Shown in pieces: positions 4,653 through 63,333 of a stretch of DNA of 64,000 bases (positions are counted from its first letter, which is position 1; every line of letters starts with the position of its first letter). The notes under the pieces were generated by a model that worked only from the letters and a program-made list of their open reading frames with translations, did not search any database and was not told the origin of the DNA. The stretch comes from a virus, in UHGV virus genome UHGV-1550212; one strand, written 5' to 3'. The position numbers and the translations under genes are program-made.

Positions 4653-6644
4653 ATGGCTGAAGTCAAGAATCAAGTGTTTAATCCAGTAGCACAATTCAAA
4701 TCTGCTGAAGAAAAAGAAGCTGCGAAAGTTATATGGTGCAGTGAATCAGTCGCAATGGCATATGATGCAGTTGACCAAGGCTTGCCACTTAGAGCAAATC
4801 CGTGGTTCTTTGGCAATATTGCACTGCGTAAGCCCGGATTGCTATACAGATACACTGACATAGAATTGCGTGAATGGCTTAGATGCAAGTATGACATATT
4901 ATATTTTGCTGACACATGGTGTCAGATTTTAACTCCAGATGGCACAAGAAAGCATTTTAATTTGAGACCATATCAACGCAAAATGCTGCGTGCATATCAA
5001 CGACAAAAGTATACGATAGTTCTTACTGGGCGACAAGTAGGCAAAACGGTCGTTACATCAGTATTTCTCGCTTGGGCAGTCATTTTCAATCGTGAGCTTA
5101 ACATAGCAGTACTTGGCGACCGCTTGGCAACATCAAGTGAAAACCTGAACAAAACAAAAGACATCATAAACAATCTGCCGTTCTTTATGAAGCCTGGTGT
5201 GTTTGTTTGGAATGGCGGAATGGTCGCATTTGACAATGGTTGCAAAATTATCACAGGTACTGCTCAAAAGTCATCACTTGTCGGTAAGACAATTCACATC
5301 TTATATCTTGATGAGCTCGCAATTCCACCTGCTCAGCAATCAAAGACTCTTGTAGATTATGCATTGCCAACAATTGCGTCATTGCCAACTGGCAAAGTTA
5401 TCGTAACATCTACGCCATCTGGTGATAATGTGTTCAAGACTTTGTGGCTTGGTGCAATTAACAAAACAAATGGCTTCTTTCCAATTCAAGTAAACTGGTG
5501 GGATATTCCTGGCCGTGATGAAAAGTGGAAAGCTGAGCAAATCGCAATTCTTGGTGAAGATGCTTTCAATGAGCAATACAACTGCGTGTTCTTGTCAGGT
5601 GCAACGTCAATTTTCAATTCAAGAGCAATTGATGATATTGCAAGACGACAGCAAAAGTATGAATTTGTTGCTGATGAGCGTCTTGAATCACTACTCAGAT
5701 TCTTCATTGCTGATTCAGATGTCGGCACTGAACCCGAGCCGCACTCATTTATGACTTGGCGTGCAGATATTGACCCAGCAACACTCAAAAATGAAACATG
5801 TATCATCAATATTGACATTGCTGAAGGTTTATCTGGCGACTTTTCTGTCATACATGTGCATCGTATAGTTGACATTACAAAAGATGTTGAACTTGAACTT
5901 GATGCAAGCAATCTGTATGATATGTTTGACGATGACAAAAAATCATTGTTTGCAAAAGCAGTTGAAATGCAACGTCAAATGTCAGCAACACAAGCTCAAG
6001 ATGATGACGATGATGACGATGACGACTGGTTTGGCGCAGACGATGATGTCGCTCAAGGCGTTGATGCATATCAAGATTATGCGAATGCTGCAGTAGAAGA
6101 GATTGGCTTATGGCGTTCAAATGTGACATCAATCAAAGTCATGGCTCTGTATTTGCAGTTCTTAATGACGTATGTGTTTGATGCAAACAAAACAAAGATT
6201 ATCTATGAACGCAACAAATATGGTGGAGAGTTTCGTTCATATTGTTTGTCTGAACGTGCACGCAATATTGCAATTGATGAAGAGAGCTTCGTAAGCTTCC
6301 AACGAACTCTTGGTTCAGAACAACTTGCACCAGGCTGTTCAATTACGCCTGGCACCAAACCAGTGTACGTAAGACAGCTCAAAGACCTTATTGAAACTGG
6401 CAAGATTCTTGAAAACAATGCAGATACGCAAAGAGAGCTTACATATTTTGGCGGTGTCAAAGGCAAGAATGGTCACGTGTCATATCAGGCGTCACCTGGC
6501 TTCCATGATGACATTGCAATGACTCTTGTATCTCTTGCAGCATTTATGGACACTCGATGCAATGACTGGCTTGAACTGCTTGATGTGTTCTACAATGGCA
6601 GCAGTCAAACAAGTTCTGATGATGACGATGATGACTGGATTTGA
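4653..6644 (+). CDS. terL: Terminase large subunit (T4 gp17-like ATPase-nuclease)
   Basis: Walker A LTGRQVGKTVVTSVFLAWAV, Walker B HILYLDELA, C-terminal nuclease-domain GFHDDIAMTLVSLAAF, all closely resembling T4 gp17 as I recall it. Start moved to ATG 4653 (MAEVKNQ), divergent from the gene starting at 4585. Contains in-frame poly-Asp tracts at 6000-6026 and 6618-6635. Confidence 0.9.
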   Translation: MAEVKNQVFNPVAQFKSAEEKEAAKVIWCSESVAMAYDAVDQGLPLRANPWFFGNIALRKPGLLYRYTDIELREWLRCKYDILYFADTWCQILTPDGTRKHFNLRPYQRKMLRAYQRQKYTIVLTGRQVGKTVVTSVFLAWAVIFNRELNIAVLGDRLATSSENLNKTKDIINNLPFFMKPGVFVWNGGMVAFDNGCKIITGTAQKSSLVGKTIHILYLDELAIPPAQQSKTLVDYALPTIASLPTGKVIVTSTPSGDNVFKTLWLGAINKTNGFFPIQVNWWDIPGRDEKWKAEQIAILGEDAFNEQYNCVFLSGATSIFNSRAIDDIARRQQKYEFVADERLESLLRFFIADSDVGTEPEPHSFMTWRADIDPATLKNETCIINIDIAEGLSGDFSVIHVHRIVDITKDVELELDASNLYDMFDDDKKSLFAKAVEMQRQMSATQAQDDDDDDDDDWFGADDDVAQGVDAYQDYANAAVEEIGLWRSNVTSIKVMALYLQFLMTYVFDANKTKIIYERNKYGGEFRSYCLSERARNIAIDEESFVSFQRTLGSEQLAPGCSITPGTKPVYVRQLKDLIETGKILENNADTQRELTYFGGVKGKNGHVSYQASPGFHDDIAMTLVSLAAFMDTRCNDWLELLDVFYNGSSQTSSDDDDDDWI

Positions 6645-16825: not shown

Positions 16826-16856
16826 ATATGATACAACAAACGTGTCAATTTTGCAC
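16826..16856 (-). promoter_or_regulatory. Promoter-like motif (sense GTGCAAAATTGACACGTTTGTTGTATCATA)
   Basis: Recurrent motif ~25 nt upstream of the clamp-loader start. Confidence 0.45.
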
Positions 16857-17876
16857 AGCATGACCGCAATCGTACACAGGCAAAAAGCCTGCGTCAAGCA
16901 TCTCTTGTGTATCTTGTCCACAATCTTTAACATATTGTCGTGTTTTGAAATTATGCCAATGCTTATGAATTGTTGACTTGTCATCTGACAGCTGTGGATT
17001 GAGCGCGAAGTCAGTCGAGTCTACTGGTTCACCTGCAAGATGCTTTCTAATGGCATCAATGACTTCATTGTCATCCATCCATTCGAATATTGTAATGCAA
17101 GTGTAGCCATGCTTGAGAGCAAGCTGAGTTTTGTTGAAGTGATAGTCGAATGCAAGTGGATGATTATGCGTTGATTTGCCCATTGCATATGCAAATCCAT
17201 ATGCTGCATTGTGTGAAAACGTTGGGTTAATTTCAATGAGCAATTTGCAATGTTCATTGCTGTAGTTCAAATCAAATGAAAATCTATGCAATGAAATTTC
17301 ATCATAGCCACAATTGATGCAAAGTTCTTGCTGCAGTTTATCATGCCAATATTTGTTTATCGCTGAAATTGGGCGACCATTTGCATCTCTGCATCTCTTT
17401 GTCATGCAAAACCATGGCACACCATATCGTTGCAGCGTTGTTGCATTGATTTTTTGTTTAGGCCCAAATGCATTGCCATACAAGCGTTGTTTTGTTTCAA
17501 GCATTTTGTTAATGTTGCTTAGAGAGTCACCCCACTTTGCTCGTTTTGTTTCAATTGATTTTGCGACGTTGCCCCATGCATTGCCGTAGCGCTCTAAATT
17601 TGTTTGTCGTTGTTTAGCGACATTGCCCATGCCATTGCCATATTTTGCACGTTTTGATGCAACCATTTTCGCAGCAACATCTTTGCATTGATTGCTATGT
17701 TCTACACCATATTTGTGCAAACATGCTATTTTTCGATTGTACTTTGTTTTAATTGCGCCATGCGATGTTTTACGTGGCGCATATCTCACAAATGGCGTTT
17801 CTGCAAGCAATTTGTCTCTTTCCTCTTCAAGTTCTTTTATGCGAGCTTCAAGAGCTTCTCCTGTCAATTTTTCCAT
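16845..17876 (-). CDS. Homing-endonuclease-like protein, paralog 2 of 5
   Basis: MEKLTGEALEARIKELEEERDKLLAETPFVRYAPRKTSHG; repeats KYGNGMGN / ERYGNAWGN / LYGNAFGP / LQRYGVPW; C-terminal LLIEINPTFSHN ... GYTCITIFEWMDD ... GFLPVYDCG. Confidence 0.6.
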   Translation of the reverse strand: MEKLTGEALEARIKELEEERDKLLAETPFVRYAPRKTSHGAIKTKYNRKIACLHKYGVEHSNQCKDVAAKMVASKRAKYGNGMGNVAKQRQTNLERYGNAWGNVAKSIETKRAKWGDSLSNINKMLETKQRLYGNAFGPKQKINATTLQRYGVPWFCMTKRCRDANGRPISAINKYWHDKLQQELCINCGYDEISLHRFSFDLNYSNEHCKLLIEINPTFSHNAAYGFAYAMGKSTHNHPLAFDYHFNKTQLALKHGYTCITIFEWMDDNEVIDAIRKHLAGEPVDSTDFALNPQLSDDKSTIHKHWHNFKTRQYVKDCGQDTQEMLDAGFLPVYDCGHAVQN

Positions 17877-18110: not shown

Positions 18111-21100
18111 TCAAAAGCTTCGATTCATCAGTTCATCAGCAAGTCGTTCAAGTTCAGTAGCAGCTTTTTGTCGCTTGGCTTCTCTTTCTGCTTCAACATC
18201 TGCTTTGCTTACTGGCGATTCCAAGTCTTTTGCAGGTGCATCTTCAATAACAGTCAAATTGCTGTCATCAAACTTGTTGTCAATGTCAACTCGTTTGAAT
18301 GATATGATGCCTGATGACACCTGAGCTTCTGCTTGTTGTTTGTCAAATACAAGGCTGCTAATTGTTGATTGCAGTTTTGTAGATGCCAGCAATCGTTCTG
18401 TGTTATCTGCAAAAATGTCATCAGTAAACAATACATGCAGCATTTGAGCAATCGAATCACGACTTCTGCTGCAGCCACTGTCAAATGCAGGCAACTGCTT
18501 AATTGCATAGATGTCGCCATCATGTACAGTAATTGCATTGAACATGCGTCTTGCAATTGATGCCACCGAATCAAGTACATCTGGTGATTGCGGCGTGTAG
18601 CCTCGTGAATCGAAGTATATGAGTGCAGAGTTCTTAACAATTTGGTCGACTACTTCTGATGCAATTGAGACTGCATCTTTGCTGTTATTGAAGACATCAT
18701 TTAGCATATATGACACAATCTTGATGTTCGACTCATGCATTGTGCCACTTGAACCCGCATCAAATATTGACACTGCATCTTTGATTGATTTGAGTCTTGC
18801 AAGTCGATACATGTCTTTGTTGTCAATGACATACATATCGATAGTCTTCATGATGGTGTCAAACAAGTAATGATGCGATAGTGTTCGCAATGCATGTCGC
18901 CAATCATCAAACACTCGTCTGTCTTCTACAAGATATGTAAGCTTGCCATTTTTCTTGACAAGTTCAAATCTGTCTGATTCTTGAACTTGCTCTGCTGGCA
19001 AATTCATGATAACTTCGAATGTAGCCTGATTGACAAATGATGCAAACATTTTGCCAATCTTGCTGTTCTTTTCTTGACGGTACTCTGCTCGAGCTTCTTT
19101 TGCAGCATTGAGAACTTGAGCAATCATCATGTCATCTGCAACAACATCTTGCACGACTTTGCATTCATAGCCATACGATGACAATGTGTTCTGAATGATG
19201 ACAAGCTGAGTAGCCCATTGTCGCCATTTCTGCTCAAACATATTGAGCTTATACGCAGTCAAGTGAATCTTGATTTCACCTGTGTACGGGTCACGATAAA
19301 AGTACGGTGCATTGAATGCCCATTCAAAGAAATCAAAGAGACTTCTTGAGTCATTGCGCTTTGTCTGCATTTGCAAAATGTCCCAGAATGACAGCTTTTC
19401 AACATTTGTTAATGTCAAGTCAAGCTCGTCATATGCAGTAATGTTTCGTGGGTCGCCATTTGATTTTGTCATACTGAAATACACATATGACTGAATGGAT
19501 ATTTTGCGAAGCCGTGAGTTAAATTGTTCGATTTCTTGACCTGTAAATGCCTCGTCATAAATGACATCAAATTCATAGCTGTCATTGATATCAATGCCAA
19601 CTGACAAGTAATTTGTGCAGAACAGCAGTTCAATATCACCAATTGTGCCAGATTCATTGATTGATTGAACAAAGTCATGCATTGCATTGTCACGCTTGTA
19701 GTACTTGACTTTTGGATTTCTGCCAAGCATCATTCGAACTGCGCCTACAATTGCATGAGTAAATGCGTCGCCTTTGTTTGTTGGGAACAGAATTCGTTTG
19801 CCTGCTTTAATTGCTGTTGAGATATGTGATGCAAGTTTTGTAATCTTGTCGCCGTCATGTTTGCAGCAGACAAATCTGACACCTTTGTTGTAATTAAGCG
19901 GCTTGTCGCAGAATATGACAGTGTCAAAATGACAGAACATGTGTTCAGCTACAGGTGTGCCTGTCATCAAAATGACTTTTGTCTGCAACTTTGTTAAGTT
20001 GTCAATCACATTTGCAGGTACAACATCACGATATGCAGACATTGTCAACAAGTGCGATTCGTCGACGACAACATAGTCATATAAAATTGACACTTCCTCT
20101 GGGTCAGCTAATGTAAATTTATCGAATGTCAAAGCTACATTGACATGCTTAGACAATTCAAGACCTCGTTGACCAAATGAGCAATACATGCCAAGGTCTG
20201 ACATCTCAATCTTTGATTGCAAGATTGATGTGTATGGTTCAATCAGCATGACTCGTTTTCCATCACGAGTAAGCTGCTTGATAAATTCTGTCTTGCCTGA
20301 GCCTGGCCGTGCAATCAAGTAATTGATGCCAGTTACAAATACTTCTTCAAGTTCATGCTTGTATGTTGACAAGTACTCATTTTCTGCAAGTTTGAAGACA
20401 TGCGTATGTCGAAGTTCAAAGTCTTTTTGCTGTGCAACTTTCGACATAATGTACTGACTGATTGCATCTTCTGTATTGTGTTCAGCAATCAGTTCATTGA
20501 CAGTTACAGATGACTTGTTAGCAAACTTGAATTTGAAGCCGTGCTTTTCACGAAGTTCTTTGACAGATGACCATACGCACGGACAAGTGCCTGCTGCATT
20601 ACGTTCAACTGCAGACCTGAATGAGTTTGCCCAGCTGTTATGCTCTGCATTGAACTTTGGATTACCCGAACACATTTGCAAGAACATTTGCAACACATGT
20701 TCATATTGACCACCTGTAGTTGACTTCAAATCATATAGCCATGCAAGTGTATAGGCCAAGCGATATCTACCAGTGTTGTCGTAGTTTTGTGGAGTGATTG
20801 TGAGCATTGTGCCCTCTTCAATCATTGTGATGTCATCACGTTGAGTGAAGACTTGCTCGCCGTCAGTCATTGCAGTCATATGAGACTTCGGCGCATAATC
20901 AAAACGACCTCGAAGTCTATCAAACATTGTCTTCAGTTTGTCGATGCAAAATTTTGCATCAACTGAAGCATAGATGCTAACATCAAACTCTGGTTGCTCA
21001 ATGAATTGCGCGTTTTGATTGATGATGACATCTTTATCACGTGCAACAAACAACGGCTGACTAATTTTGCAAACAGATGCATCAACTACTCGAGATTCAG

Positions 21101-21710
21101 ACATTTGACCTGACTTTTCAAGTCGTCTTGACAATGTATTGTTGACAGGATGCACTTCTCGAGCCATGTCATGATTGCCCTCTGATTCAAGCTGGTCACT
21201 CAGCAACACAAGGCATTTCCAAATGACATACAATTTTGCCTCATATGCATCAAGATATGCTTTCTTTGCTGCAGAAGCATTTTCAGATGACACAAATACA
21301 GCATCTTCAGTTTGAATTGACAGAGGCTTTGAGATTGTGTAGACGTGCAAGCCTGAACCAGAAGTCGACTTAAGCACAGCAACACACCACGGATATTTGC
21401 AAAGCATTGCAGCCAAACGTGGTTTGATGACTTCTACAAGTTCTTTTGAGTGAAAGTCCAAATCGACTGGCTGCAGACCTGACCAAGTCAAGTAGTCATG
21501 AACTTGTTGTTTTGGTCGAGCAAACATTGTCGATTGCGACACAAAGGGACGATGTGCTTTATCTACTGTGTCAAGTGACTCATCATTTGCAACTTTCATG
21601 ATGAGGTCATACAATGAAATTTGTTGCTTATTGACAGTGTCTTCTGTTTTACGAACACTGTCGCCCATCATGAACTTTATGCCACTGAGCAAATCTTTGA
21701 CGTTTGACAT
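18111..21710 (-). CDS. Primase-helicase: N-terminal archaeo-eukaryotic-primase-like domain fused to an SF2-type helicase
   Basis: N-terminus VDLDFH (DxD) and STSGSGLHVYT (sGxGxH) fit primase motifs I/II. Helicase motifs ARPGSGKTEF (I), VVVDESH (II), LMTGTP (III), QFNSRLRK (VI). 1199 aa. Confidence 0.55.
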   Translation of the reverse strand: MSNVKDLLSGIKFMMGDSVRKTEDTVNKQQISLYDLIMKVANDESLDTVDKAHRPFVSQSTMFARPKQQVHDYLTWSGLQPVDLDFHSKELVEVIKPRLAAMLCKYPWCVAVLKSTSGSGLHVYTISKPLSIQTEDAVFVSSENASAAKKAYLDAYEAKLYVIWKCLVLLSDQLESEGNHDMAREVHPVNNTLSRRLEKSGQMSESRVVDASVCKISQPLFVARDKDVIINQNAQFIEQPEFDVSIYASVDAKFCIDKLKTMFDRLRGRFDYAPKSHMTAMTDGEQVFTQRDDITMIEEGTMLTITPQNYDNTGRYRLAYTLAWLYDLKSTTGGQYEHVLQMFLQMCSGNPKFNAEHNSWANSFRSAVERNAAGTCPCVWSSVKELREKHGFKFKFANKSSVTVNELIAEHNTEDAISQYIMSKVAQQKDFELRHTHVFKLAENEYLSTYKHELEEVFVTGINYLIARPGSGKTEFIKQLTRDGKRVMLIEPYTSILQSKIEMSDLGMYCSFGQRGLELSKHVNVALTFDKFTLADPEEVSILYDYVVVDESHLLTMSAYRDVVPANVIDNLTKLQTKVILMTGTPVAEHMFCHFDTVIFCDKPLNYNKGVRFVCCKHDGDKITKLASHISTAIKAGKRILFPTNKGDAFTHAIVGAVRMMLGRNPKVKYYKRDNAMHDFVQSINESGTIGDIELLFCTNYLSVGIDINDSYEFDVIYDEAFTGQEIEQFNSRLRKISIQSYVYFSMTKSNGDPRNITAYDELDLTLTNVEKLSFWDILQMQTKRNDSRSLFDFFEWAFNAPYFYRDPYTGEIKIHLTAYKLNMFEQKWRQWATQLVIIQNTLSSYGYECKVVQDVVADDMMIAQVLNAAKEARAEYRQEKNSKIGKMFASFVNQATFEVIMNLPAEQVQESDRFELVKKNGKLTYLVEDRRVFDDWRHALRTLSHHYLFDTIMKTIDMYVIDNKDMYRLARLKSIKDAVSIFDAGSSGTMHESNIKIVSYMLNDVFNNSKDAVSIASEVVDQIVKNSALIYFDSRGYTPQSPDVLDSVASIARRMFNAITVHDGDIYAIKQLPAFDSGCSRSRDSIAQMLHVLFTDDIFADNTERLLASTKLQSTISSLVFDKQQAEAQVSSGIISFKRVDIDNKFDDSNLTVIEDAPAKDLESPVSKADVEAEREAKRQKAATELERLADELMNRSF

Positions 21711-29159: not shown

Positions 29160-29230
29160 TGCAATACGACAGGACTCGAACCTGCGACCTCGGATTGGAC
29201 GTCCGCGCTCTTACCGCTGAGCTACGTATT
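29160..29230 (-). tRNA. tRNA-Gly(UCC)-like, atypical (G at position 33, G1:G72 mismatch); possibly a pseudo-tRNA
   Basis: Minus strand GAATACG-TA-GCTCAGCGGTAAGAGC-GCGGA-CGTCCAA-TCCGA-GGTC-GCAGG-TTCGAGT-CCTGT-CGTATTG; canonical D and T arms, anticodon TCC. Confidence 0.5.
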
Positions 29231-29321
29231 CTTATCAATTGACTGCACTGCAATGCAATCAATCGTGCCAATGATATTTGACGCATAATTGCAGTTATGC
29301 GTAACAATTCAAATGTCATTG

Positions 29322-29394
29322 AGCCAACTGCAGGAGTCGAACCTGTAACCTGCTGATTACAAATCAGCTGCTCTGCCAATTGAGCTAAGTTGGC
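29322..29394 (-). tRNA. tRNA-Thr(UGU)
   Basis: GCCAACT-TA-GCTC-AATTGGCA-GAGC-A-GCTGA-TTTGTAA-TCAGC-AGGTT-ACAGG-TTCGACT-CCTGC-AGTTGGC-T; acceptor stem 7/7 paired. Confidence 0.8.
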
Positions 29395-29476
29395 ATAAAG
29401 TCGTTGGGCCATTGCAACCCAAACCTATCATCTTTGTCTAACCAAAGATGCAAGTGTTCTCTTACACCACGACTTG

Positions 29477-29548
29477 TAGCCGAACTTGGAGTCGAACCAA
29501 GCTTTCGAGAATGAAAATCTCGCGTCCTAACCGATAGACGAAACGGCC
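29477..29548 (-). tRNA. tRNA-Glu(UUC)
   Basis: Anticodon arm CGAGA-TTTTCAT-TCTCG, T arm CTTGG-TTCGACT-CCAAG, D loop with GG; acceptor stem has two mismatches at its base, so ends are +/- 2 nt. Confidence 0.65.
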
Positions 29549-29731
29549 AAGAGCAGTTCAAGTCTGCAGCATTGAACTGCGGAAACAATGCCTGTACGGG
29601 CAGCAAATTGTGCAGATACAGCGACATTGCAAAATCACACCGAACCAAGTTTGTGGCTCTTCTGTCTCATAAAAACAAGTAATCATTACACTTGGCACCA
29701 ATGATTCTGATGTAAAAATCGGTGTGTTATG

Positions 29732-29816
29732 CGGAGAGTAAGGGATTCGAACCCCTGGTACGTTGCCGTACAGTGGTTTTCAAGACCACCGCCATCGACC
29801 GCTCGGCCAACTCTCC
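29732..29816 (-). tRNA. tRNA-Ser(UGA), long variable arm
   Basis: GGAGAGT ... GTGGT-CTTGAAA-ACCAC, variable arm TGTACGGCAACGTACCA, T arm AGGGG-TTCGAAT-CCCTT, acceptor 3' ACTCTCC perfectly paired. Confidence 0.85.
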
Positions 29817-30010
29817 ATAAAACATTGCATAAGCATTCTTATCTCTTGATGAGACCAAGTAGCTAATTTGGCAAGTTTGTTATATCTATCGTGACTGTTG
29901 CAGTTTGTTTGTCACTCAATACACAAAACTTTCGAACATTCATTGACAGCACTGCAATATCGCTTTTTAAGCTTAGCCATCAATGTATTTATGCAATGTA
30001 TAACAATTCG

Positions 30011-30092
30011 TAGCCAAACCGGGACTTGAACCCAGACTCCTAATGGAACAACATTTTGAGTGTTGCGTGTCTACCAATTCCACCATTTGGCC
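30011..30092 (-). tRNA. tRNA-Leu(CAA), long variable arm
   Basis: Anticodon arm CAACA-CTCAAAA-TGTTG, variable arm about 13 nt, T arm CTGGG-TTCAAGT-CCCGG, acceptor GGCCAAA/TTTGGCT. Confidence 0.8.
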
Positions 30093-30182
30093 ATTTACAA
30101 ATGCAATCTATTTCACAACTGTTTGCATTTGCATTGTTTAACACTAAAAATATGATTCATCTAATCAAAAACCAGAGAATTG

Positions 30183-30256
30183 TAGGGTAGACAGGACTCA
30201 AACCTGCGACCACGTGGTCCCAAACCACGCATTCTAATCAACTGAACTACTACCCT
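30183..30256 (-). tRNA. tRNA-Pro(UGG)
   Basis: AGGGTAG-TA-GTTC-AGTTGATTA-GAAT-G-CGTGG-TTTGGGA-CCACG-TGGTC-GCAGG-TTTGAGT-CCTGT-CTACCCT-A. Confidence 0.85.
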
Positions 30257-30262
30257 AAGTAG

Positions 30263-30334
30263 TTGAACCGTCTGGACTCGAACCAGAAATGGCTGAACCA
30301 AAATCAGCTGTGTTACCGATTACACCACGATTCA
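30263..30334 (-). tRNA. tRNA-Gln(UUG)
   Basis: TGAATCG-TG-GTGT-AATCGGTA-ACAC-A-GCTGA-TTTTGGT-TCAGC-CATT-TCTGG-TTCGAGT-CCAGA-CGGTTCA-A. Confidence 0.85.
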
Positions 30335-55474: not shown

Positions 55475-57232
55475 CTACTCTGCTTTTGTTGCTTGCATCA
55501 GTTCAGCAAAGCTTACAGTGTAAGCATCTTCACCAACAGTCACATATGCAGCATCAACATTTGAGTCATTGCCTGTGTATGCAACCAAGGTGCCTGCTGG
55601 AATTTCTACACCGTCAATTGTTAGCATCGAATTGACAAGCTTGTATGTCTTGTTATCTTCGAAGTTCTCATTGACATATGCAGCAGCAATCATTGTTGAA
55701 CGTTTACGAGATTCATTGACAAAGCTTGCGCCAACAAGTTCTGACAGCTTCTTCTTTGTTGCTGCAGAGCATTTGTCATATGCAATGTCAATTGCGAGGT
55801 CTACATCACCAAGTTCCTTTGCAATGAGTTCATCAATCTGAGACAGCTTCTTGTCATCTTTGACAGCGACAAAATTCATTGCAAACTTGCGAGCGTTGTC
55901 TGACAATGATTCATCAATGTTCCACTGTTTCATCAATGTCTGCTTCAACACCTTGTCAAGTTCTGACCAGTCCTTATCTGCAAGAGTAGTTGCATCAAAG
56001 TCTTCATTGCTGAACTGCTTCAGCACTTTGACTTTGTCATCATGTGACAATGCTGACCACTTGTTTGCAGCGTCTTCAGCAGATTCAAGCAGAGGCTTGA
56101 TTGCATCTTTGAGTTCTTGCGGCCAAGTTTCAGGCGCTTTGAGCAGCATCTCAGATGAGTTGTACTCAAGCATGTCTGTCATGATTGCAAGCTTGACATT
56201 GTTAGCTTTCTCTTCAGGTGACAGAGCTTTGAATTTTTCAGCCCAGTCTTCAGATTCAGTCACGATTGATGCAGGCTTTGCAAAACCAGCAACAAAAACG
56301 AGCTTGTACATGATGTTCGTCATGAATGAGCAAGCTGCATCGATATCTGACTGAGTTGCTGCAGATTGAGCATCACGAATGTTGAGCAATGCCTGACGAA
56401 GAGACATAATGCCTACAACAGGGTCAGACCATGTCAATACAACTGAACTATCGATTGTGATGCCCTTGTCAAATCGCATATTTTCTGCAATGCGGTCAGC
56501 AAGTTCAGGCAGTTCAGTGTAGTACTGCTCAAGCGCTGCATGTGCAGCAGGAATTGAAACTTTTGCAGCATCAAATGCGTTGTTGATGTGCATAACATGC
56601 GCAGTTTGAATTGACTGCATCAACATCGACACTACTGCAGATTCTGTTGCAACATCATCTGTTGCAGCTTCATTAACAAATGACGCCATTGCATTTTGCA
56701 GCATGTATTGATGGTCTCGTACTGGCAACTCAACAATTTCAAAGCCTTCAAGAGACTTTGGCGAATCAGTTGCTGAACCTGCTTCAAGACACTTCTTTGA
56801 TGCATTGTCAATGACAAACCACATCTTTTGTGCTTTGAGTGCAATGTAAGTCTTGTCTTTTGATTGCTGAACAGTCATGTTGTCAAGAGCCAACGCACTG
56901 ATTGGCAAATTCTTGACTGCTGACTTGTCAAGTGCTTCATTGACTGCTACATTGTCATCACTCATTAACTGAGTATTTGCAGCAAATGTTGCAGAATCAA
57001 TGCTAAGCTCTTTGCCATCAGGCATAGAGAACTTAACTGCATCTGCAACATCAAGCACTTGCACCATGGCGCCTGCTTCGACTTTGTCATCACCAACAGC
57101 GAACTCAGTTACAACCTGATATGCCTTGTTAGCTTCAACAGTTTCAACAGACTCCATAATGAACTTTGCTGTACTGCAAGAGATTTTGTGCTTTTTCATG
57201 TTCATGTATGAATTTGAGTGTTTGTTGTTCAT
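55475..57232 (-). CDS. Hypothetical acidic protein (585 aa), possibly virion-associated given its position near the capsid gene
   Basis: Long ORF; preceded by three tandem promoter-like repeats. Confidence 0.55.
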   Translation of the reverse strand: MNNKHSNSYMNMKKHKISCSTAKFIMESVETVEANKAYQVVTEFAVGDDKVEAGAMVQVLDVADAVKFSMPDGKELSIDSATFAANTQLMSDDNVAVNEALDKSAVKNLPISALALDNMTVQQSKDKTYIALKAQKMWFVIDNASKKCLEAGSATDSPKSLEGFEIVELPVRDHQYMLQNAMASFVNEAATDDVATESAVVSMLMQSIQTAHVMHINNAFDAAKVSIPAAHAALEQYYTELPELADRIAENMRFDKGITIDSSVVLTWSDPVVGIMSLRQALLNIRDAQSAATQSDIDAACSFMTNIMYKLVFVAGFAKPASIVTESEDWAEKFKALSPEEKANNVKLAIMTDMLEYNSSEMLLKAPETWPQELKDAIKPLLESAEDAANKWSALSHDDKVKVLKQFSNEDFDATTLADKDWSELDKVLKQTLMKQWNIDESLSDNARKFAMNFVAVKDDKKLSQIDELIAKELGDVDLAIDIAYDKCSAATKKKLSELVGASFVNESRKRSTMIAAAYVNENFEDNKTYKLVNSMLTIDGVEIPAGTLVAYTGNDSNVDAAYVTVGEDAYTVSFAELMQATKAE

Positions 57233-57366
57233 ATGATATGATATATATCAAGTGCAGCAATTGAACAGATTGCAAAAACAATGCTCAGACTGTAAAGTCT
57301 GAGCATTGAACGACTAAATTGTACATCTTCCACAATGATATAGAATCATTGTTAATATTGTATTGA

Positions 57367-57478
57367 TATTGTACAACATGCATTGCATATTTGCAATGAT
57401 ACAACATGCAAAATGCACTTGCACTTTGATGCAAAGTACTGCGTACACAACATGCATCGCGTATTTGCATTTTGACGC
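57367..57478 (-). promoter_or_regulatory. Array of three tandem promoter-like units
   Basis: attgtacaacatgcattgcatatttgca / atgatacaacatgcaaaatgcacttgca / tactgcgtacacaacatgcatcgcgtatttgca; closely related copies at 50137-50192 and 58517-58590. Confidence 0.5.
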
Positions 57479-57482
57479 AATG

Positions 57483-58565
57483 TCATTGTTGTTTATGCCA
57501 GCCATATGATGCCTGACCAGCATCATACACTTCTACGAAGCCATGGTCGTACATAAAATCTTCATTACGAGTGCCCTTGCCCCCATTAGTGCCAAGAATA
57601 CGGTCTGCGCCATGCATAAGCAGCATATTATTTGTGACATGTTGCTTTGTCAGCATATTGAACCAGTGTTTGCTATATGACAAGCCAAGACCATCAAAGC
57701 CCAGCTTTGTGTACACACCACCGTCAAACTTGCTTAAATCACAATATGATAACACAGATTCAGGGTCATATGTCTTGATAAAGTGCTTAAAGATTCGTTC
57801 AGCACCACCAACAACTTTGGTTGCTGCACAAAGACGTAGCAATTCATATTGATAGCGCTTATTGTATCGTGGACGACCAAATGTCATAAGTTGATGAATG
57901 ACATAACCACCAAGCAACTCAAGTGGATGACCTTCAATCAACGCAAGATTGATAAAATTGCCTGAGCACTTGCCTTGCAAATGATGTTCAATCAAAAATT
58001 GATTTGCAGTATACTTGTCAATTTCAACAACTTTAAGCTTGCGAGCATATACAATCTTTGATTTGTCTACGATTTGATGCTTGATGTGATTGATAACTTT
58101 CTTGGCGTCATCCCAGTCCCACACATGAATGCAATGAAAGCCTGCTGATTTGGCGATGTCTGTTTTCTTTGCATGAATATCACAAGGCAAATGCGAATCT
58201 TTTGCATCATGCATAAACAGATGTTCAAATGAATGTGTGCTGTTATGTGAAAATGCAGGATTGATGTTAATGACAATATTGTCATGTCGAAAATCGAAGA
58301 CTTCATCGCCAATGACAAAGTTGCGCTCAAAATTTATACCGACATGTTTGAGTAACACTTGATGCCACACATCTTTATAGGCTGATTCAAGCTTGCTTAG
58401 CTCATCACAGTTTGCAATGTTTTTGTAACGTTGAATAGCAGCATCAAAGTCAAGATTGACTTCAGCGTAGTCTGCATTTTTATCGTAGTGAAATTTTGAG
58501 CTCATGTGTATAATTTTGTATGAGATTATTGTACAACATGCAAATGCATGTTGCATTTGATGCAA
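57483..58565 (-). CDS. Homing-endonuclease-like protein, paralog 3 of 5 (nuclease-like domain N-terminal, different downstream module)
   Basis: DNIVININPAFSHN ... GFHCIHVWDWDD near the N-terminus; C-terminal GFVEVYDAG shared with the other paralogs; middle region with ANQFLIEHHLQG. Confidence 0.55.
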   Translation of the reverse strand: MHQMQHAFACCTIISYKIIHMSSKFHYDKNADYAEVNLDFDAAIQRYKNIANCDELSKLESAYKDVWHQVLLKHVGINFERNFVIGDEVFDFRHDNIVININPAFSHNSTHSFEHLFMHDAKDSHLPCDIHAKKTDIAKSAGFHCIHVWDWDDAKKVINHIKHQIVDKSKIVYARKLKVVEIDKYTANQFLIEHHLQGKCSGNFINLALIEGHPLELLGGYVIHQLMTFGRPRYNKRYQYELLRLCAATKVVGGAERIFKHFIKTYDPESVLSYCDLSKFDGGVYTKLGFDGLGLSYSKHWFNMLTKQHVTNNMLLMHGADRILGTNGGKGTRNEDFMYDHGFVEVYDAGQASYGWHKQQ

Positions 58566-58590
58566 AGTACTGCGTACACAACATAAAGTA
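58517..58590 (-). promoter_or_regulatory. Promoter-like repeat units between two homing-endonuclease-like genes
   Basis: attgtacaacatgcaaatgcatgttgcatttgatgcaaagtactgcgtacacaacat; shares ttgatgcaaagtactgcgtacacaacat with 57420-57460. Confidence 0.45.
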
Positions 58591-58612
58591 CAAGTTTGTC
58601 TTTTGATAGACT

Positions 58613-59674
58613 TTACTTTGTATTGCTACGCGTCATTGTTAAATGACCGCAATCATACACATCAACTTCTGTTTTGCCAAGCATGCATGTATGACAATTT
58701 ATTTTGAAATCTGCTGCAGCGTAATCAGGATAGTTTAGTGGAGATTCTTTTGACAAATCAATTTCAATTGTGTCAGTAGTTTTAAGCTGTTCAGTACCTG
58801 CAATGATATCTGCAATAAGATTGATAACTTCTTCTTGTGAATCCCAATCAAACACAGTTATGCAACGATAGCCTACATCAAGTGCAAGTTTTGTTTTATT
58901 GTAATGGTATTGCGCACCAATAACATTGTTGTCTTTTGCTCGACCAGTTAAATATGCAAAACTAACAGTGCAGTTGTGCGTAACTGTTGGACAAATTTCT
59001 ATAAGTAACTTTGCAGGCTCATACTGCAAATCATATGTTTGATTATTGATGTTAAACTCGTACTGTGTATCAATTGCCAACTGTCGTAATAACGCATCAT
59101 GCCACATCATATTACATTTAGAAATTGTTTTGGATGACAATCTGCATTGAGGCAATTGACATGGCCAATCTACGCCGTACATTTGTTGTGTTGTTTGACG
59201 CATTTTGTTAACATCACCAAAATGATTGCCATATCGATGCTCTTTGGTTTTAAGCGACTGCTCAATATTGACATTGCCTACACAACCATAACGTTCAAGT
59301 TTTGTTGCAGCAGTTTTGCTAACATCACCATGTCCATTACCAAATTTGGCGACTTTAGTTGCAAGTATTTTATGACTTGGGCCAAATGCATTGCCATACA
59401 ATTCTTGTTTAGTCGCAAGCATTTTGTCGATATTACAACCAGCGCCATAAGTGTTATGCATAGTTTGCATACGCTGTCGAATAAATTTTGGCACAGATAA
59501 AGGACTTTCTACACCATATTTGCGTAAGCAACTGATTTTGCATGCGTACTTTTGCTTGATGACAGAATGTGCATTTCGACGTCCTATGTAAGTATTTTCT
59601 GATGTAGCAGCAAGCTCTGCATCTCTAAGAACTTCAAGTGCAGCAATTCGTGCTTCAATTTCTTCAGATGTCAT
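58613..59674 (-). CDS. Homing-endonuclease-like protein, paralog 4 of 5
   Basis: MTSEEIEARIAALEVLRDAELAAT; repeats LERYGCVGN / HRYGNHFGD / QMYGVDWP; LLIEICPTVTHN ... GYRCITVFDWD ... VDVYDCGH. Confidence 0.6.
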   Translation of the reverse strand: MTSEEIEARIAALEVLRDAELAATSENTYIGRRNAHSVIKQKYACKISCLRKYGVESPLSVPKFIRQRMQTMHNTYGAGCNIDKMLATKQELYGNAFGPSHKILATKVAKFGNGHGDVSKTAATKLERYGCVGNVNIEQSLKTKEHRYGNHFGDVNKMRQTTQQMYGVDWPCQLPQCRLSSKTISKCNMMWHDALLRQLAIDTQYEFNINNQTYDLQYEPAKLLIEICPTVTHNCTVSFAYLTGRAKDNNVIGAQYHYNKTKLALDVGYRCITVFDWDSQEEVINLIADIIAGTEQLKTTDTIEIDLSKESPLNYPDYAAADFKINCHTCMLGKTEVDVYDCGHLTMTRSNTK

Positions 59675-59694
59675 TTTTTAATAGCATATTGATA

Positions 59695-59723
59695 ATTGTA
59701 CAACATACAAATGCGTTTTGCAT
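59695..59723 (-). promoter_or_regulatory. Promoter-like motif (sense TGCAAAACGCATTTGTATGTTGTACAATT)
   Basis: 21 nt upstream of ATG 59674. Confidence 0.45.
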
Positions 59724-59759
59724 TTTTGATGTAGCAATTGCTTGCACAGTTTGCAAAAA

Positions 59760-59790
59760 AGAACCGCTTGCAATCTAATTGCAAGCGGTT
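59760..59790 (-). terminator. Hairpin gaaccgcttgcaat-cta-attgcaagcggttc (14-bp stem)
   Basis: Perfect inverted repeat downstream of the capsid gene on the minus strand. Confidence 0.5.
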
Positions 59791-60021
59791 CAATGAATAC
59801 GTTTGTCAGAAACTGTCAATGTGTGCAATCGCTTGAAGAGTTAGCTGAACAGCTTGTTGATGCGATTGCTGCATTGGTGACTACCAAGCAGCCCATTGAA
59901 CATTGGATTCGACATCAACGTCTTTGTGGTTGTTGTTGAACTCACCAAGCCAGCAAGTATCATTTAGCAAGTTTCCAAACTTAACGTACTTGTCGTTCCC
60001 CGGCTTGGGTGGCGCAGGTTG

Positions 60022-61737
60022 TCAAATCCAGCCGTAGTCGCTGTGGATAGCGAAGGTGAGATAAGCCAACTCGGGATACATACCCGTCTCCGCGAGAGCG
60101 TAATCCGACTCAATCAGCAACTTAGGTGCTGCTGTACCCTCAGCGGTTAATTCCACACTTGATGCAAGGTCATATGGCATGAATACACATCCCTGGTTGA
60201 CATTCTCTACGTCAACGCCGTCAGCAGTCTTGTTCGTACGAAGAACGAGAACAGTGTTATCGTTCAGCGGCTGCTTAGGATTGCAATAGATTTTAATGCC
60301 AGCCAAGTCACCTGCATAATACAGGTTCTTGTTGTCCTGTACCAGCGTATTGTCAAGAGCTGCAACAAAGTTCTTCTGAGCCTTAATTGCAACCAAGGCA
60401 ATCGTATTGACCACAGCAGCATCACCAGCACCGAAACGCGACAGGTTGCCAATGATTGTCGAAGCAGCCAGGATACGAGTTGCGATACGAGCCTGACGGG
60501 TAATCTGGTTCTCAGCCGAGCTGTTCGATTCAGCGTTAGGAACCATGCCGAACTCAGCCGTGCGGTCTACACCCATCTTGTCAACGAATGCAGGAGCCTG
60601 GAATTCCGAGAATGCCTTGGCAGTCGAACCAGCGTAGCCAATGTACAAGTTCAGGTTGTAGCCCTGAGCAGCCAACAGCTGAGCATGTGTCGTAACACCA
60701 AGTGCACGCATGCGCTTCAGACCATTGTCGTTGATTGACTGCGTGATTTCATTCTGCATTGCATTCTTGATGATTGCAACTGCATCCAAACCGCGAGCAC
60801 GGAGGTCCTTAACCTGGCGACGAGTCAGAGCACCCCAAGTCTGGTACGTCTTAACTTCGATAGCCTTTGAGAAGGTGCGGAGCTCCAGCATGTTCGGGTT
60901 GCCAGCCTCAGCCTCAGAACGAGACATTGGATTGCCGTCAAGGTCATCCATTGCAGCGAAGCCGTGGATGTGTTCGTCACCAGCCGAAACCAGGTCGAAC
61001 ATAACCTCAGTCATGCCAGTCAGCATGTCAGTTACAGCACCTGTAGCGTCAACCGAGTAGATTTTCGATGCAGCCATTGCAACATCAGCCAACGACTTGT
61101 CAGGAGCAACAGTCATTGCGCCACCAGCGCCAACGGTATATACGCCTTCATTGCGAACTACGAGGTAGCCTGCAACACGCGATACCTGTACGAACGTTAC
61201 CTTGGCAGCAAGCTCACCAGCAGCTGAACCGCCGATGTACAGAACTTGACCCTTCTTGAGGCCATGAACCATTGTCTGCGAAGCAACATTGTACAACTCC
61301 TTCCACTTGATGAGGAAGTAGCGAGGACCCTTGGCTGCGTTCAACTTGCCACCACCATACACGTAGTCTACATAGTCCAGCTGAACCAGCGGGCTGTATA
61401 CAGGAATGGCCGGGAGCAGGTCGAACAGAATCGTGTTGGCTGCGATGTTCATGTTCAGAGCCAGAACATTGGCAGCTACATCGATTGAACCACGCTTACG
61501 CGACGGGTCATGGAACTGTGCTTGCGTACCTGGGTCAGCAGGGAAAGCGACCGGACCTACGCCATTGAGATTCTGCGAATACGTCGACTCAAACGACTCG
61601 TTCATATACTGAACGTTCTGAGCGATTGATGCGAGCAGATACTTCTTAGCGGGCGAAAGCTTGGAGTCAAACGACTCATCAAGAACAGGGCCCCACTTTT
61701 TCAGCAATGCATCAATCTGTGTACGTTTTGCGTTCAT
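60022..61737 (-). CDS. Major capsid protein (T4 gp23-like)
   Basis: N-terminus TQIDALLKKWGPVLDE versus T4 gp23 TKAELLNKWKPLLEGE; internal QVKDLRARGLDA versus AQDLRAVHGMDA; codon usage noticeably more GC-rich at third positions than neighbours. Confidence 0.8.
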   Translation of the reverse strand: MNAKRTQIDALLKKWGPVLDESFDSKLSPAKKYLLASIAQNVQYMNESFESTYSQNLNGVGPVAFPADPGTQAQFHDPSRKRGSIDVAANVLALNMNIAANTILFDLLPAIPVYSPLVQLDYVDYVYGGGKLNAAKGPRYFLIKWKELYNVASQTMVHGLKKGQVLYIGGSAAGELAAKVTFVQVSRVAGYLVVRNEGVYTVGAGGAMTVAPDKSLADVAMAASKIYSVDATGAVTDMLTGMTEVMFDLVSAGDEHIHGFAAMDDLDGNPMSRSEAEAGNPNMLELRTFSKAIEVKTYQTWGALTRRQVKDLRARGLDAVAIIKNAMQNEITQSINDNGLKRMRALGVTTHAQLLAAQGYNLNLYIGYAGSTAKAFSEFQAPAFVDKMGVDRTAEFGMVPNAESNSSAENQITRQARIATRILAASTIIGNLSRFGAGDAAVVNTIALVAIKAQKNFVAALDNTLVQDNKNLYYAGDLAGIKIYCNPKQPLNDNTVLVLRTNKTADGVDVENVNQGCVFMPYDLASSVELTAEGTAAPKLLIESDYALAETGMYPELAYLTFAIHSDYGWI

Positions 61738-61825
61738 GATTGAATTTGTTTGTTATTGAAAGTGAAACATATATTTCTGTATAATATGTATAGAACTACT
61801 GACATTGATTGAATTGTGAAAATGG

Positions 61826-63217
61826 TCATTTTTCAATCTTTTTGAGCAATGCATGACCACAATCATAGACTTCGACGAAGCCTGACGCAATCATTTGTTG
61901 CCTATCAAACCCATTGTCAAGTAGATGTTCCCATGTCTTTGTATTGTGCCAATGCAATTGAATTGATGATTTATCTGTACTAAGCTGCGGATTTTTTGAA
62001 AAGTCTGCACAGTCAATTTTGTCACCGTTAAGATGCTTACGAATGCATTCAATGACAGTGTCGTGGTCATCCCAGTCCCATATTGTTATGCATACATAGC
62101 CATGTTGTAATGCAATTTGTGTCTTGTCAAAATGACTATCATGTCTCTTTGGCCTATTACGCTTTGTGCGCTTAGTAATATATGCATATGAGTATGTTGA
62201 GTTATGCGAAAATGTTGGATTCACTTCAATCAACAATTTGCAATGTTCATTTTCATAATGCAAGTCATATGAAAAGCCAAGTAGCTTAACATCGTCATAA
62301 CTGCAATCAATGTTAAGCTCTTGTTGCAACTTATCATGCCAAAATTGATTTGGCTTAGATATTATGTTGCCTTGACTGTTTATGCAGTTAGAAGTCATAC
62401 ATGACCATGGCACGCCATAACGCTCAATGTTTGTTTTGTTTGCACTTGCTTGAATTTTTGACAATGGGCCCCATGGATGACCATACTTTGCACGCTTGAC
62501 ATCTGCACCACGTTTAGCAACTTCACGATAATCGCCATAACGCTCTTTTCTTGTAGCAAGCATTTTTGCAATATTGCCCGCGCCACGAGAGCCATATCTA
62601 AGCTCTTTAGTCTTTTGAGCTTTGGCGTAATCACCACAAAATGCATTGCCATATCGAGCAATTTTTGTTGCTTTCATTTTTTCAATGTTGCCTGCACCAG
62701 CATTGCCATAACGTTCAAGTTTTGTTTGCTTGGACAATTCAACATTGCCAAATTTGTTGCCATAACGCACTAATTTTGTTTCTTGTGAACGTTGACGTAT
62801 TTCTTGCACTTGTGCACAGTATTCTACGCCATAGCGTTTTAACATTGTTATTCGTTGATTATATGCACGTTTAATAGGTGCATGCGATGTTCGTTTTGGC
62901 CCATATTTAACAAACTCAGTAGATGCAAGTAATTCATCACGCTCACGTTCAAGTTCTGCAATTCGTTGTTGTATATGGACATCATACACAGGCTGCTCAG
63001 AAATGTCATCAATAGCTGTCGTTTCTAATTTAGCAAGTTTGCGTTTAAGAGCTTTTGTTGTTTGCGTGCAGCTCATTTTTATCAATGCATGTGCATGTCT
63101 GCCACAGTCAAGTACAATGTTAGGCTCATTTGCAAGGCGTTCATCACGTTTACATTCTGCAGCATGTATTGCATCAATAAGTTGTCGTCTCTTTACATTA
63201 TATTCGTCTTGTGTCAT
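61826..63217 (-). CDS. Homing-endonuclease-like protein, paralog 5 of 5
   Basis: IAELERERDELLASTEFVKYGPKRTSHAPIK; repeats VRYGNKFGN / ERYGNAGAGN / IARYGNAFCGD / LRYGSRGAGN / ERYGDY / AKYGHPWGP / ERYGVPW; LLIEVNPTFSHN ... GYVCITIWDWDD ... GFVEVYDCGH. Confidence 0.6.
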   Translation of the reverse strand: MTQDEYNVKRRQLIDAIHAAECKRDERLANEPNIVLDCGRHAHALIKMSCTQTTKALKRKLAKLETTAIDDISEQPVYDVHIQQRIAELERERDELLASTEFVKYGPKRTSHAPIKRAYNQRITMLKRYGVEYCAQVQEIRQRSQETKLVRYGNKFGNVELSKQTKLERYGNAGAGNIEKMKATKIARYGNAFCGDYAKAQKTKELRYGSRGAGNIAKMLATRKERYGDYREVAKRGADVKRAKYGHPWGPLSKIQASANKTNIERYGVPWSCMTSNCINSQGNIISKPNQFWHDKLQQELNIDCSYDDVKLLGFSYDLHYENEHCKLLIEVNPTFSHNSTYSYAYITKRTKRNRPKRHDSHFDKTQIALQHGYVCITIWDWDDHDTVIECIRKHLNGDKIDCADFSKNPQLSTDKSSIQLHWHNTKTWEHLLDNGFDRQQMIASGFVEVYDCGHALLKKIEK

Positions 63218-63333
63218 AATTATCTGTGTTTAATTTATGTATACTATTGTATTGTAGCATTGACTACTTTGCGCATAACAAAAAAGAAGCCAAGTCATTT
63301 GACTTGGCTTTGAAATGTGTACTTGCAGTTGTA

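Follow-up and report, generated by a model that had tools for sequence, protein, structure and literature searches.

Hef-like putative homing endonuclease genes beside the terminase, clamp-loader and capsid genes of an uncultured jumbo phage

Introduction

The hef gene of phage U5 is described as encoding an endonuclease that targets and cleaves nrdB (PMC2988022). Hef was placed by Taylor et al. in the EDxHD family, of which the prototype, I-Bth0305I, has been characterised biochemically (PMC3239194). Essential phage genes accompanied at the same location by homing endonuclease genes (HEGs) of unstable identity have been described as HEG islands (Barth, Dunham & Seed 2023, PMC10448857). Also of relevance here is Mom of phage Mu, a tRNA-dependent GNAT enzyme that modifies DNA adenine; residues R111, D149, Y159, W181 and W48 matter for its activity, and its helix-turn-helix (HTH)-like insertion has been proposed to bind DNA (PMC13219725). 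In the present work, we have analysed five paralogous genes on the minus strand of a 64,000-nucleotide stretch of the UHGV virus genome UHGV-1550212 (the window). An original prediction, made without database searches, had taken them for homing-endonuclease-like genes of an apparently distinct family, each with a Vsr/DUF559-like nuclease domain, set beside core genes as in T4-like phages. We report that the five genes are members of the known Hef-like / EDxHD (Vsr-fold) homing endonuclease family and do not form a distinct one.

Results

Five paralogues with a modular anatomy

The five genes, numbered in the order of their coordinates, are the following.

3290–4585, minus strand: gene 1, 431 residues, in back-to-back arrangement with the gene of the terminase large subunit; two coiled-coil modules, six DUF7487-type units, Vsr-like nuclease domain (IEINPTFTHN) and short Mom-derived tail.
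16845–17876, minus strand: gene 2, 343 residues, between the clamp-loader gene and a 1199-residue open reading frame (ORF); coiled-coil module at about 17709–17876, DUF7487 units at about 17397–17708, Vsr-like nuclease domain at about 17028–17384 and Mom-derived tail at about 16848–16979.
57483–58505, minus strand: gene 3, 340 residues from its likely ATG at 58505, with no N-terminal array; Vsr-like domain at about 58065–58409 (IVININP) and intact Mom-like GNAT domain at about 57486–58064.
58613–59674, minus strand: gene 4, 353 residues; one coiled-coil module, seven units, nuclease domain (IEICPTVTHN) and shortened tail.
61826–63217, minus strand: gene 5, 463 residues, directly upstream of the capsid gene; one coiled-coil match, eight units, nuclease domain (IEVNPTFSHN) and Mom-derived tail.

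A profile of the five proteins and their homologues, searched against the six-frame translation of the 64-kb window, returned exactly these five genes (E 2.6e-62 to 2.7e-156), all on the minus strand and with the predicted motifs, and no further copies or fragments. The other four proteins are 27–42% identical to gene 1 in pairwise comparisons and the five align throughout. They share a nuclease motif, YD(L/F)...(I/V)E(I/V)NPT(F/V)(S/T)HN...(Y)HxxK...G(Y/F)xC(I/V)(T/H)(I/V)(W/F)(D/E)W(D/M)D, with IEICP in place of IEINP in gene 4, and a terminal motif, (GF/TE)(L/V)xVYD(C/A)G. Genes 4 and 3 were also considered as the two halves of one split gene; this was rejected, each of them having a complete nuclease domain.

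Gene 3 differs in architecture from genes 1, 2, 4 and 5. These four long paralogues are modular, with one or two N-terminal helix-strand-helix coiled-coil modules, six to eight single-helix DUF7487 units, the nuclease domain and a tail of about 40 residues. The coiled-coil motif ARIxELExxRDxL is found in all four; the regular expression matches twice in gene 1 and once in gene 5, and the stretch upstream of the gene 5 match aligns with the first copy of gene 1. The predicted tandem repeats are present in the same four genes, with a period of 18–19 residues rather than about 17, and they number 6, 6, 7 and 8 in genes 1, 2, 4 and 5 rather than 3–8, by our own count, in which the flanking KYGVE and RYGVP units are included. 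Gene 3 has none.

These repeats correspond to Pfam DUF7487 (PF24308), which matched genes 1, 4 and 5 at 29.5, 30.1 and 38.2 bits and gene 2 at 23.7 bits, under the gathering cutoff of 27 bits; the Pfam scan gave no DUF7487 match in gene 3. In the AlphaFold2 model of gene 2 (mean predicted local distance difference test score (pLDDT) 90.8), each unit is a 12-residue helix followed by a loop. We infer that the units form a sequence-reading DNA-binding array. A literature search found no publication on DUF7487. The arrays vary from one allele to another and are candidate modules of programmable DNA recognition.

The shared domain and the Hef-like family

The conserved domain has, by models and alignments, the Vsr/DUF559-like nuclease fold derived from PD-(D/E)XK, in agreement with the original prediction. 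The AlphaFold2 model of gene 3, compared by Foldseek with I-Bth0305I (Protein Data Bank (PDB) entry 3r3p), gave a probability of 1.0. Profile-profile comparison by hhalign was carried out with a family profile (alignment A2, 120 sequences; A1 denotes the alignment of the paralogues). It matched the Hef-like protein of Tequatrovirus N2, the gene of which sits between nrdA and nrdB, with a probability of 99.8% and an E value of 9e-28 over 245 columns, spanning the nuclease and GNAT domains up to the terminal xxYDCG strand. With a protein made of DUF7487 and DUF559, hhalign placed YDF...IEFDGTYWH opposite YDL...IEINPTFSHN.

Several searches point to a large family that has already been catalogued. 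PHROG 3339, annotated as 'homing endonuclease', matched genes 1, 3 and 5 (E 2.4e-41 for gene 3), and no PHROG match was obtained for genes 2 and 4. By tblastn we found 341 GenBank phage records, with labels that include 'putative Hef-like homing endonuclease' and 'putative nuclease/acetyltransferase protein'; the Hef-like annotations, which are many, come from Campylobacter, Vibrio, Klebsiella, Acinetobacter, Tenacibaculum and other phages, and in Campylobacter phage records the family occurs at 10–11 places, with a maximum of 11 per genome. A word-indexed search with gene 3 returned 777 homologues, nearly all of which combine variable N-terminal modules (DUF7487, NUMOD3, HTH, zinc ribbons) with the nuclease and a Mom-like domain. 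An exhaustive profile search reached 32,342 cluster representatives (50% clustering) at E<=1e-3, of which 9,437 at E<=1e-30.

The Asp (YDL) and the His (THN) at the catalytic positions are invariant in 120 of 120 and 70 of 70 homologues. The Glu of IEIN is conserved in genes 1, 2, 4 and 5 and replaced by Asn in gene 3. As had been predicted, Pfam detected no GIY-YIG, HNH or LAGLIDADG domain in the five proteins. A PHROG 559 'HNH endonuclease' label does fall on gene 3, where it covers the nuclease and Mom-like region only (residues 86–359 of the 360-residue ORF).

Hef and the window proteins are homologous over the nuclease and Mom-like GNAT domains. Both are encoded by free-standing genes, often in several copies and near essential genes, and both carry variable N-terminal DNA-binding modules. 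They differ in that the window subfamily has IE(I/V)NP where Hef has IE(Y/F)(D/N)G, bears WDWDD after the last core strand, and has lost the GNAT core in four of the five copies; its N-terminal modules are DUF7487 and a lineage-specific coiled coil, whereas other Hef-like proteins have zinc ribbons or HTH motifs. I-Bth0305I (PMC3239194, PMC2677866) similarly has an N-terminal DNA-binding region and a C-terminal nuclease, and shares with the window family a metal-binding Asp, a general-base His and an acidic residue at the position of Vsr Phe62; the Asp–His spacing is 17 residues in I-Bth0305I (D196–H213) and 16 in the window family (D71–H87). Unlike the window proteins, I-Bth0305I is intron-encoded, carries NUMOD/HTH motifs, has no GNAT domain, and gives no significant direct sequence match to them.

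An EDxHD-type endonuclease was also seen in an unrelated phage, in which the terminase gene is interrupted by about 1.75 kb (IMG/VR contigs L014, 2394–5313, and L015, 5962–8881). This endonuclease (IIEFNGTYWH) has zinc-ribbon-like N-terminal motifs and aligns to the nuclease domain of the paralogues. An intron, intein or fractured gene presumably accounts for the interruption.

Gene 3 and its Mom-like GNAT domain

Gene 3 lacks the N-terminal modules and has a full additional C-terminal domain of about 190 residues that is not present as such in the other four paralogues. Its ORF extends from 57483 to 58565, as had been predicted, but the start is most likely the ATG at 58505 (MSSKF...) and not the TTG at 58565, because the 20 upstream codons are not conserved in P0001, a homologue that is 96% identical.

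The AlphaFold2 model of gene 3 (pLDDT 88.3) had as its best PDB match Mom of phage Mu (8bv8, Foldseek E 5.6e-8). Pfam Mom (PF25680) matched the homologue P0013 (E 2.5e-11) and gave no match in gene 3 itself. By models and alignments, the C-terminal domain is a Mom-like GNAT with the HTH-like insertion typical of Mom. In a local hhalign alignment to the single Mu Mom sequence, which is weak (E 0.057), residues R224, D256, Y265, W281 and F170 of gene 3 stood opposite R111, D149, Y159, W181 and W48 of Mom. In the same weak alignment, S124 and R151 of Mom had no clear counterpart; the region of S124 reads GGA in gene 3, a motif resembling the classical GNAT P-loop. Gene 3 also differs from Mom in that the domain is fused to a nuclease domain.

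The Mom-like domain is intact in gene 3 only and mostly deleted in the other four paralogues. Their tail, HWxNxKT...GFxxVYDCG, corresponds to the HTH-like insertion of Mom, with its conserved Trp, followed by the last strand; the HWxN hairpin is missing from gene 4. The terminal GF(L/V)xVYDCG motif noticed originally is real, and is thus the remnant of a Mom-like domain that had escaped notice.

In gene 3, every invariant residue of the Mom-like domain has been kept. The nuclease domain has changed at the conserved Glu, which is present in 119 of 120 homologues and replaced by Asn in gene 3 alone; Vsr itself has Phe at this position. Gene 3 is also the only stable one of the five: in related genomes it is 97–98% identical at the amino acid level, with a ratio of nonsynonymous to synonymous substitution rates (dN/dS) of 0.03–0.05, a constraint equal to that on the capsid gene. 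We read gene 3, from its sequence, as the ancestral nuclease plus Mom-like architecture stripped of its DNA-binding array and with Asn substituted for Glu. It has probably ceased to act as an autonomous homing enzyme and been retained for another function, and may have been domesticated.

Literature searches found no publication on a Mom-like domain in Hef-type proteins. One quite speculative idea, to which we assign a low likelihood, is that this domain, which tens of thousands of Hef-like proteins conserve and which strong purifying selection has kept in gene 3, with its attenuated nuclease and no DNA-binding array, actively modifies DNA. Its role in the full-length enzymes would be to mark or protect the genome of the carrier against its own or paralogous nucleases, and gene 3 would be a domesticated stand-alone immunity or DNA-hypermodification factor. 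If this were true, homing would follow a restriction-modification-like logic held in a single polypeptide. The conserved Mom-like domain of this very large endonuclease family, above all that of gene 3, is the only part of the present findings that might lead to something new.

Allele turnover and selection in related genomes

We compared the window with close relatives (contigs L001, L005/L007/L009, L002/L024, L026, L027 and L028) in which the flanking DNA is 94–97% identical to it. Polymorphism among related genomes, proposed originally as something to look for, was found in the form of both allele replacement and presence/absence. In at least five related contigs, alleles that are 29–57% identical take the place of the whole ORF at sites 1, 2 and 5 and of its N-terminal two-thirds at site 4, and the alleles assort independently between sites. 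At site 5, a 429-residue allele, 29% identical to gene 5, is present in L001, L005 and L026, and also in L027; what it shares with gene 5 is confined to about 5 codons at the start and 22 at the end. The allele of the window recurs at this site in another sample. At site 4, the N-terminal stretch of about 240 codons (58920–59643 in the window) is replaced in L001 and L005, and L026 has the allele of the window, the whole gene being 97% identical. At site 2, the allele of L007 is longer (455 codons from stop to stop), and L028/L029 have that of the window. At site 1, L002 has a 424-residue allele that is more similar to gene 2 (52% identity) than to gene 1 (35%).

More distant genomes differ in the presence of the genes. 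L006, the capsid protein of which is 74% identical to that of the window (99% in L005), is empty at sites 5 and 4 and retains at site 3 only a decayed remnant without the catalytic strands. No copy was found at the terminase and clamp-loader loci of distant relatives. In the cultured relatives MA9V-2 and PTm1, the capsid gene is closely followed on its downstream side by other Hef-like genes.

The dN/dS values were 0.04 for gene 4, 0.12 for gene 2, 0.21 for gene 5 (11 differences) and 0.08 for the 429-residue allele, as compared with 0.03–0.05 for the capsid gene. The paralogues are under purifying selection and are not decaying.

The polymorphism at these slots matches the pattern of HEG islands, and the capsid gene of this phage is such an island. 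In both cases an essential gene is bracketed by HEGs, their positions are kept and their identity turns over. The concept was drawn from T5orf172 and HNH genes, mainly in ICP1-like phages (PMC10448857), whereas the genes of the window are all Hef-like and belong to a jumbo phage. The near-identical jumbo-phage genomes, with differing alleles at the capsid, terminase and clamp-loader slots, offer a clean natural example of HEG turnover. A gene set that appeared novel by sequence alone receives its right label, and is an ordinary case of a known phenomenon.

Two further observations concern the copies in relatives. At the start of L009 (1–1856; IMGVR_UViG_3300045988_149023), the site-1 allele stops after 204 residues, before the nuclease domain, and abuts an unrelated lipoprotein-like ORF of 327 residues at the end of the contig, which reflects either a genuine rearrangement or a chimeric assembly. 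Outside the region of the window, at least two more paralogues lie in L024 (6001–7122, in a 181-kb contig) and L025 (6001–7059, in a 39.6-kb Logan contig), one adjoining a DEAD-box helicase gene and the other a sigma-factor-like gene. With at least two extra paralogues in close relatives, the genome therefore holds at least seven copies.

Proposed mechanism and alternative explanations

The reading that we favour, and consider probable, is that the five genes are free-standing Hef-like / EDxHD homing endonuclease genes of an uncultured jumbo phage, for which homing is predicted. Rfam detected no intron of either group I or group II within the window, and the genes are free-standing for this reason; intron-less homing is most likely their mechanism. 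During a mixed infection, the N-terminal array would recognise, in a co-infecting phage with a different allele or none, a site within or next to the adjoining essential gene, be it terminase, clamp loader or capsid. The Vsr-like domain would cut this site, and recombinational repair would copy the endonuclease gene and its flanking sequence into the co-infecting genome. DNA cleavage, the target sites and homing are inferred here from family membership and polymorphism, by analogy with Hef of phage U5 and with I-Bth0305I.

Several observations weigh against homing. No close relative simply lacks any of the genes; other alleles occupy the same fixed slots, the ORF ends being conserved, and ectopic recombination among paralogues, without endonuclease activity, could be the source of such replacement. 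The 5' region of the terminase gene beside the swapped allele is 75–87% identical in L002, versus 98–100% in L009, which has a related allele; co-conversion of the terminase 5' end with the allele is only suggested by this, and we do not claim it. Within the nuclease domain, the paralogues have Asn, and gene 4 Cys, where the canonical ExD(G) motif has its second acidic residue; canonical relatives of the IE(F/Y)NG type also have Asn there. Equivalents of D222 and E170 of I-Bth0305I were not identified in the paralogues, in which a conserved YHxxK helix occupies the region.

We considered the possibility that the five genes are domesticated derivatives that no longer home and serve as DNA-binding regulators or as nucleases that attack the DNA of the host or of competitors, with gene 3 perhaps acting as a Mom-like DNA modifier or an immunity factor. 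This would fit with the strong purifying selection on all copies, which for gene 3 is on a par with that on the capsid gene, with slots that are fixed across close relatives, and with the presence, even where capsids are only 34–37% identical, of a Hef-like gene downstream of the capsid gene. It would also account for gene 3, which has no array and has Asn in place of a Glu found in 119 of 120 homologues, yet keeps the invariant Mom-like residues, including the counterparts of Mom R111, D149, Y159 and W181 (PMC13219725). Purifying selection does not discriminate between the two explanations, however, as it is shared by active HEGs, and a fixed beneficial role would not lead one to expect either the wholesale allele replacement that four of the five slots show between otherwise 94–97% identical genomes or the loss and decay in a more distant relative. 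We regard domestication of the set as unlikely, though the least unlikely of the alternatives.

That the genes are decaying relics of past invasions, without present function, is very improbable. Most of the Mom-like domain has indeed been lost in four of the five, gene 4 has lost the HWxN hairpin in addition, and a decayed remnant and a truncated copy were met in L006 and L009. Yet the five ORFs are all intact, dN/dS values of 0.03–0.21 give no sign of relaxed selection, the catalytic Asp and His do not vary among 70 and 120 homologues, and the truncated architecture recurs in many intact homologues. Hardly any weight is left for a new homing endonuclease family distinct from all known ones, as first proposed. 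Scans of the five proteins with Pfam and NCBIfam did detect DUF7487 only and no nuclease family directly, and searches of PDB sequences with profiles A1 and A2 gave nothing meaningful. Profile-profile and fold comparisons nevertheless led to the Vsr/DUF559/EDxHD group and to the Hef-like family, which is already catalogued, annotated and very large; the hhalign match to a Hef-like protein, PHROG 3339, the more than 32,000 representatives and the DUF7487 repeats all speak for this assignment.

Genomic setting and additional observations

The source is an uncultured jumbo phage related to PAU and Lak, of about 175–181 kb, and is not T4-like as the original prediction had implied. Its capsid protein (571 residues) is 26–37% identical to those of Chryseobacterium phage MA9V, Sphingomonas phage PAU, Tenacibaculum phages (PTm) and Lak phages; the close relatives are metagenomic contigs of 175–181 kb, and megablast of the region against GenBank phages gave no match. 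The location of the five genes next to core genes was borne out, as they neighbour the genes for the major capsid protein, the terminase large subunit and the clamp loader. Gene 5 flanks the capsid gene upstream, and genes 4 and 3 flank it downstream. Features around it are as follows.

60022–61737, minus strand: major capsid protein gene (phrog_138, major head protein; weak match to Pfam Gp23).
63287–63310, minus strand: intrinsic terminator after a 191-residue gene, upstream of gene 5.
59761–59791, minus strand: intrinsic terminator with a 14-bp stem and a T-run, after the capsid gene and upstream of gene 4.
57279–57308, minus strand: intrinsic terminator after gene 3.

A hairpin with a T-run resembling these strong terminators is also found upstream of gene 2. 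A shared motif of about 45 nucleotides (…GTACTTTGCATCAAA.TGCAA..GCATTTGCATGTTGTACAAT…) occurs upstream of both gene 3 and gene 4 (58528–58547 and 59695–59714) and again, as a similar copy, downstream of gene 3 (about 57400–57450). Its 20-nucleotide core has two matches, versus 0.09 expected by chance, and the motif probably represents a promoter or regulatory site of the phage.

The 1199-residue ORF adjoining gene 2 (18111–21710, minus strand) has no PHROG match and contains a P-loop-like PGSGKT and a DExH-like VVDESH. The terminase large subunit (4653–6644, plus strand) has two poly-Asp runs, each ending in Trp, which is unusual for a terminase; one is internal (…DDDDDDDDWFGADDD…) and the other C-terminal (…SSDDDDDDWI). 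A cluster of seven tRNA genes occupies 29161–30334 on the minus strand. Downstream of gene 3, a gene encoding 585 residues (55475–57232, minus strand) shows a weak match to DUF5856 and a match to PHROG 858. Its version in relatives has 649–650 residues and is 78% identical, though other genes are 97–99% identical, which makes it a length-variable protein.

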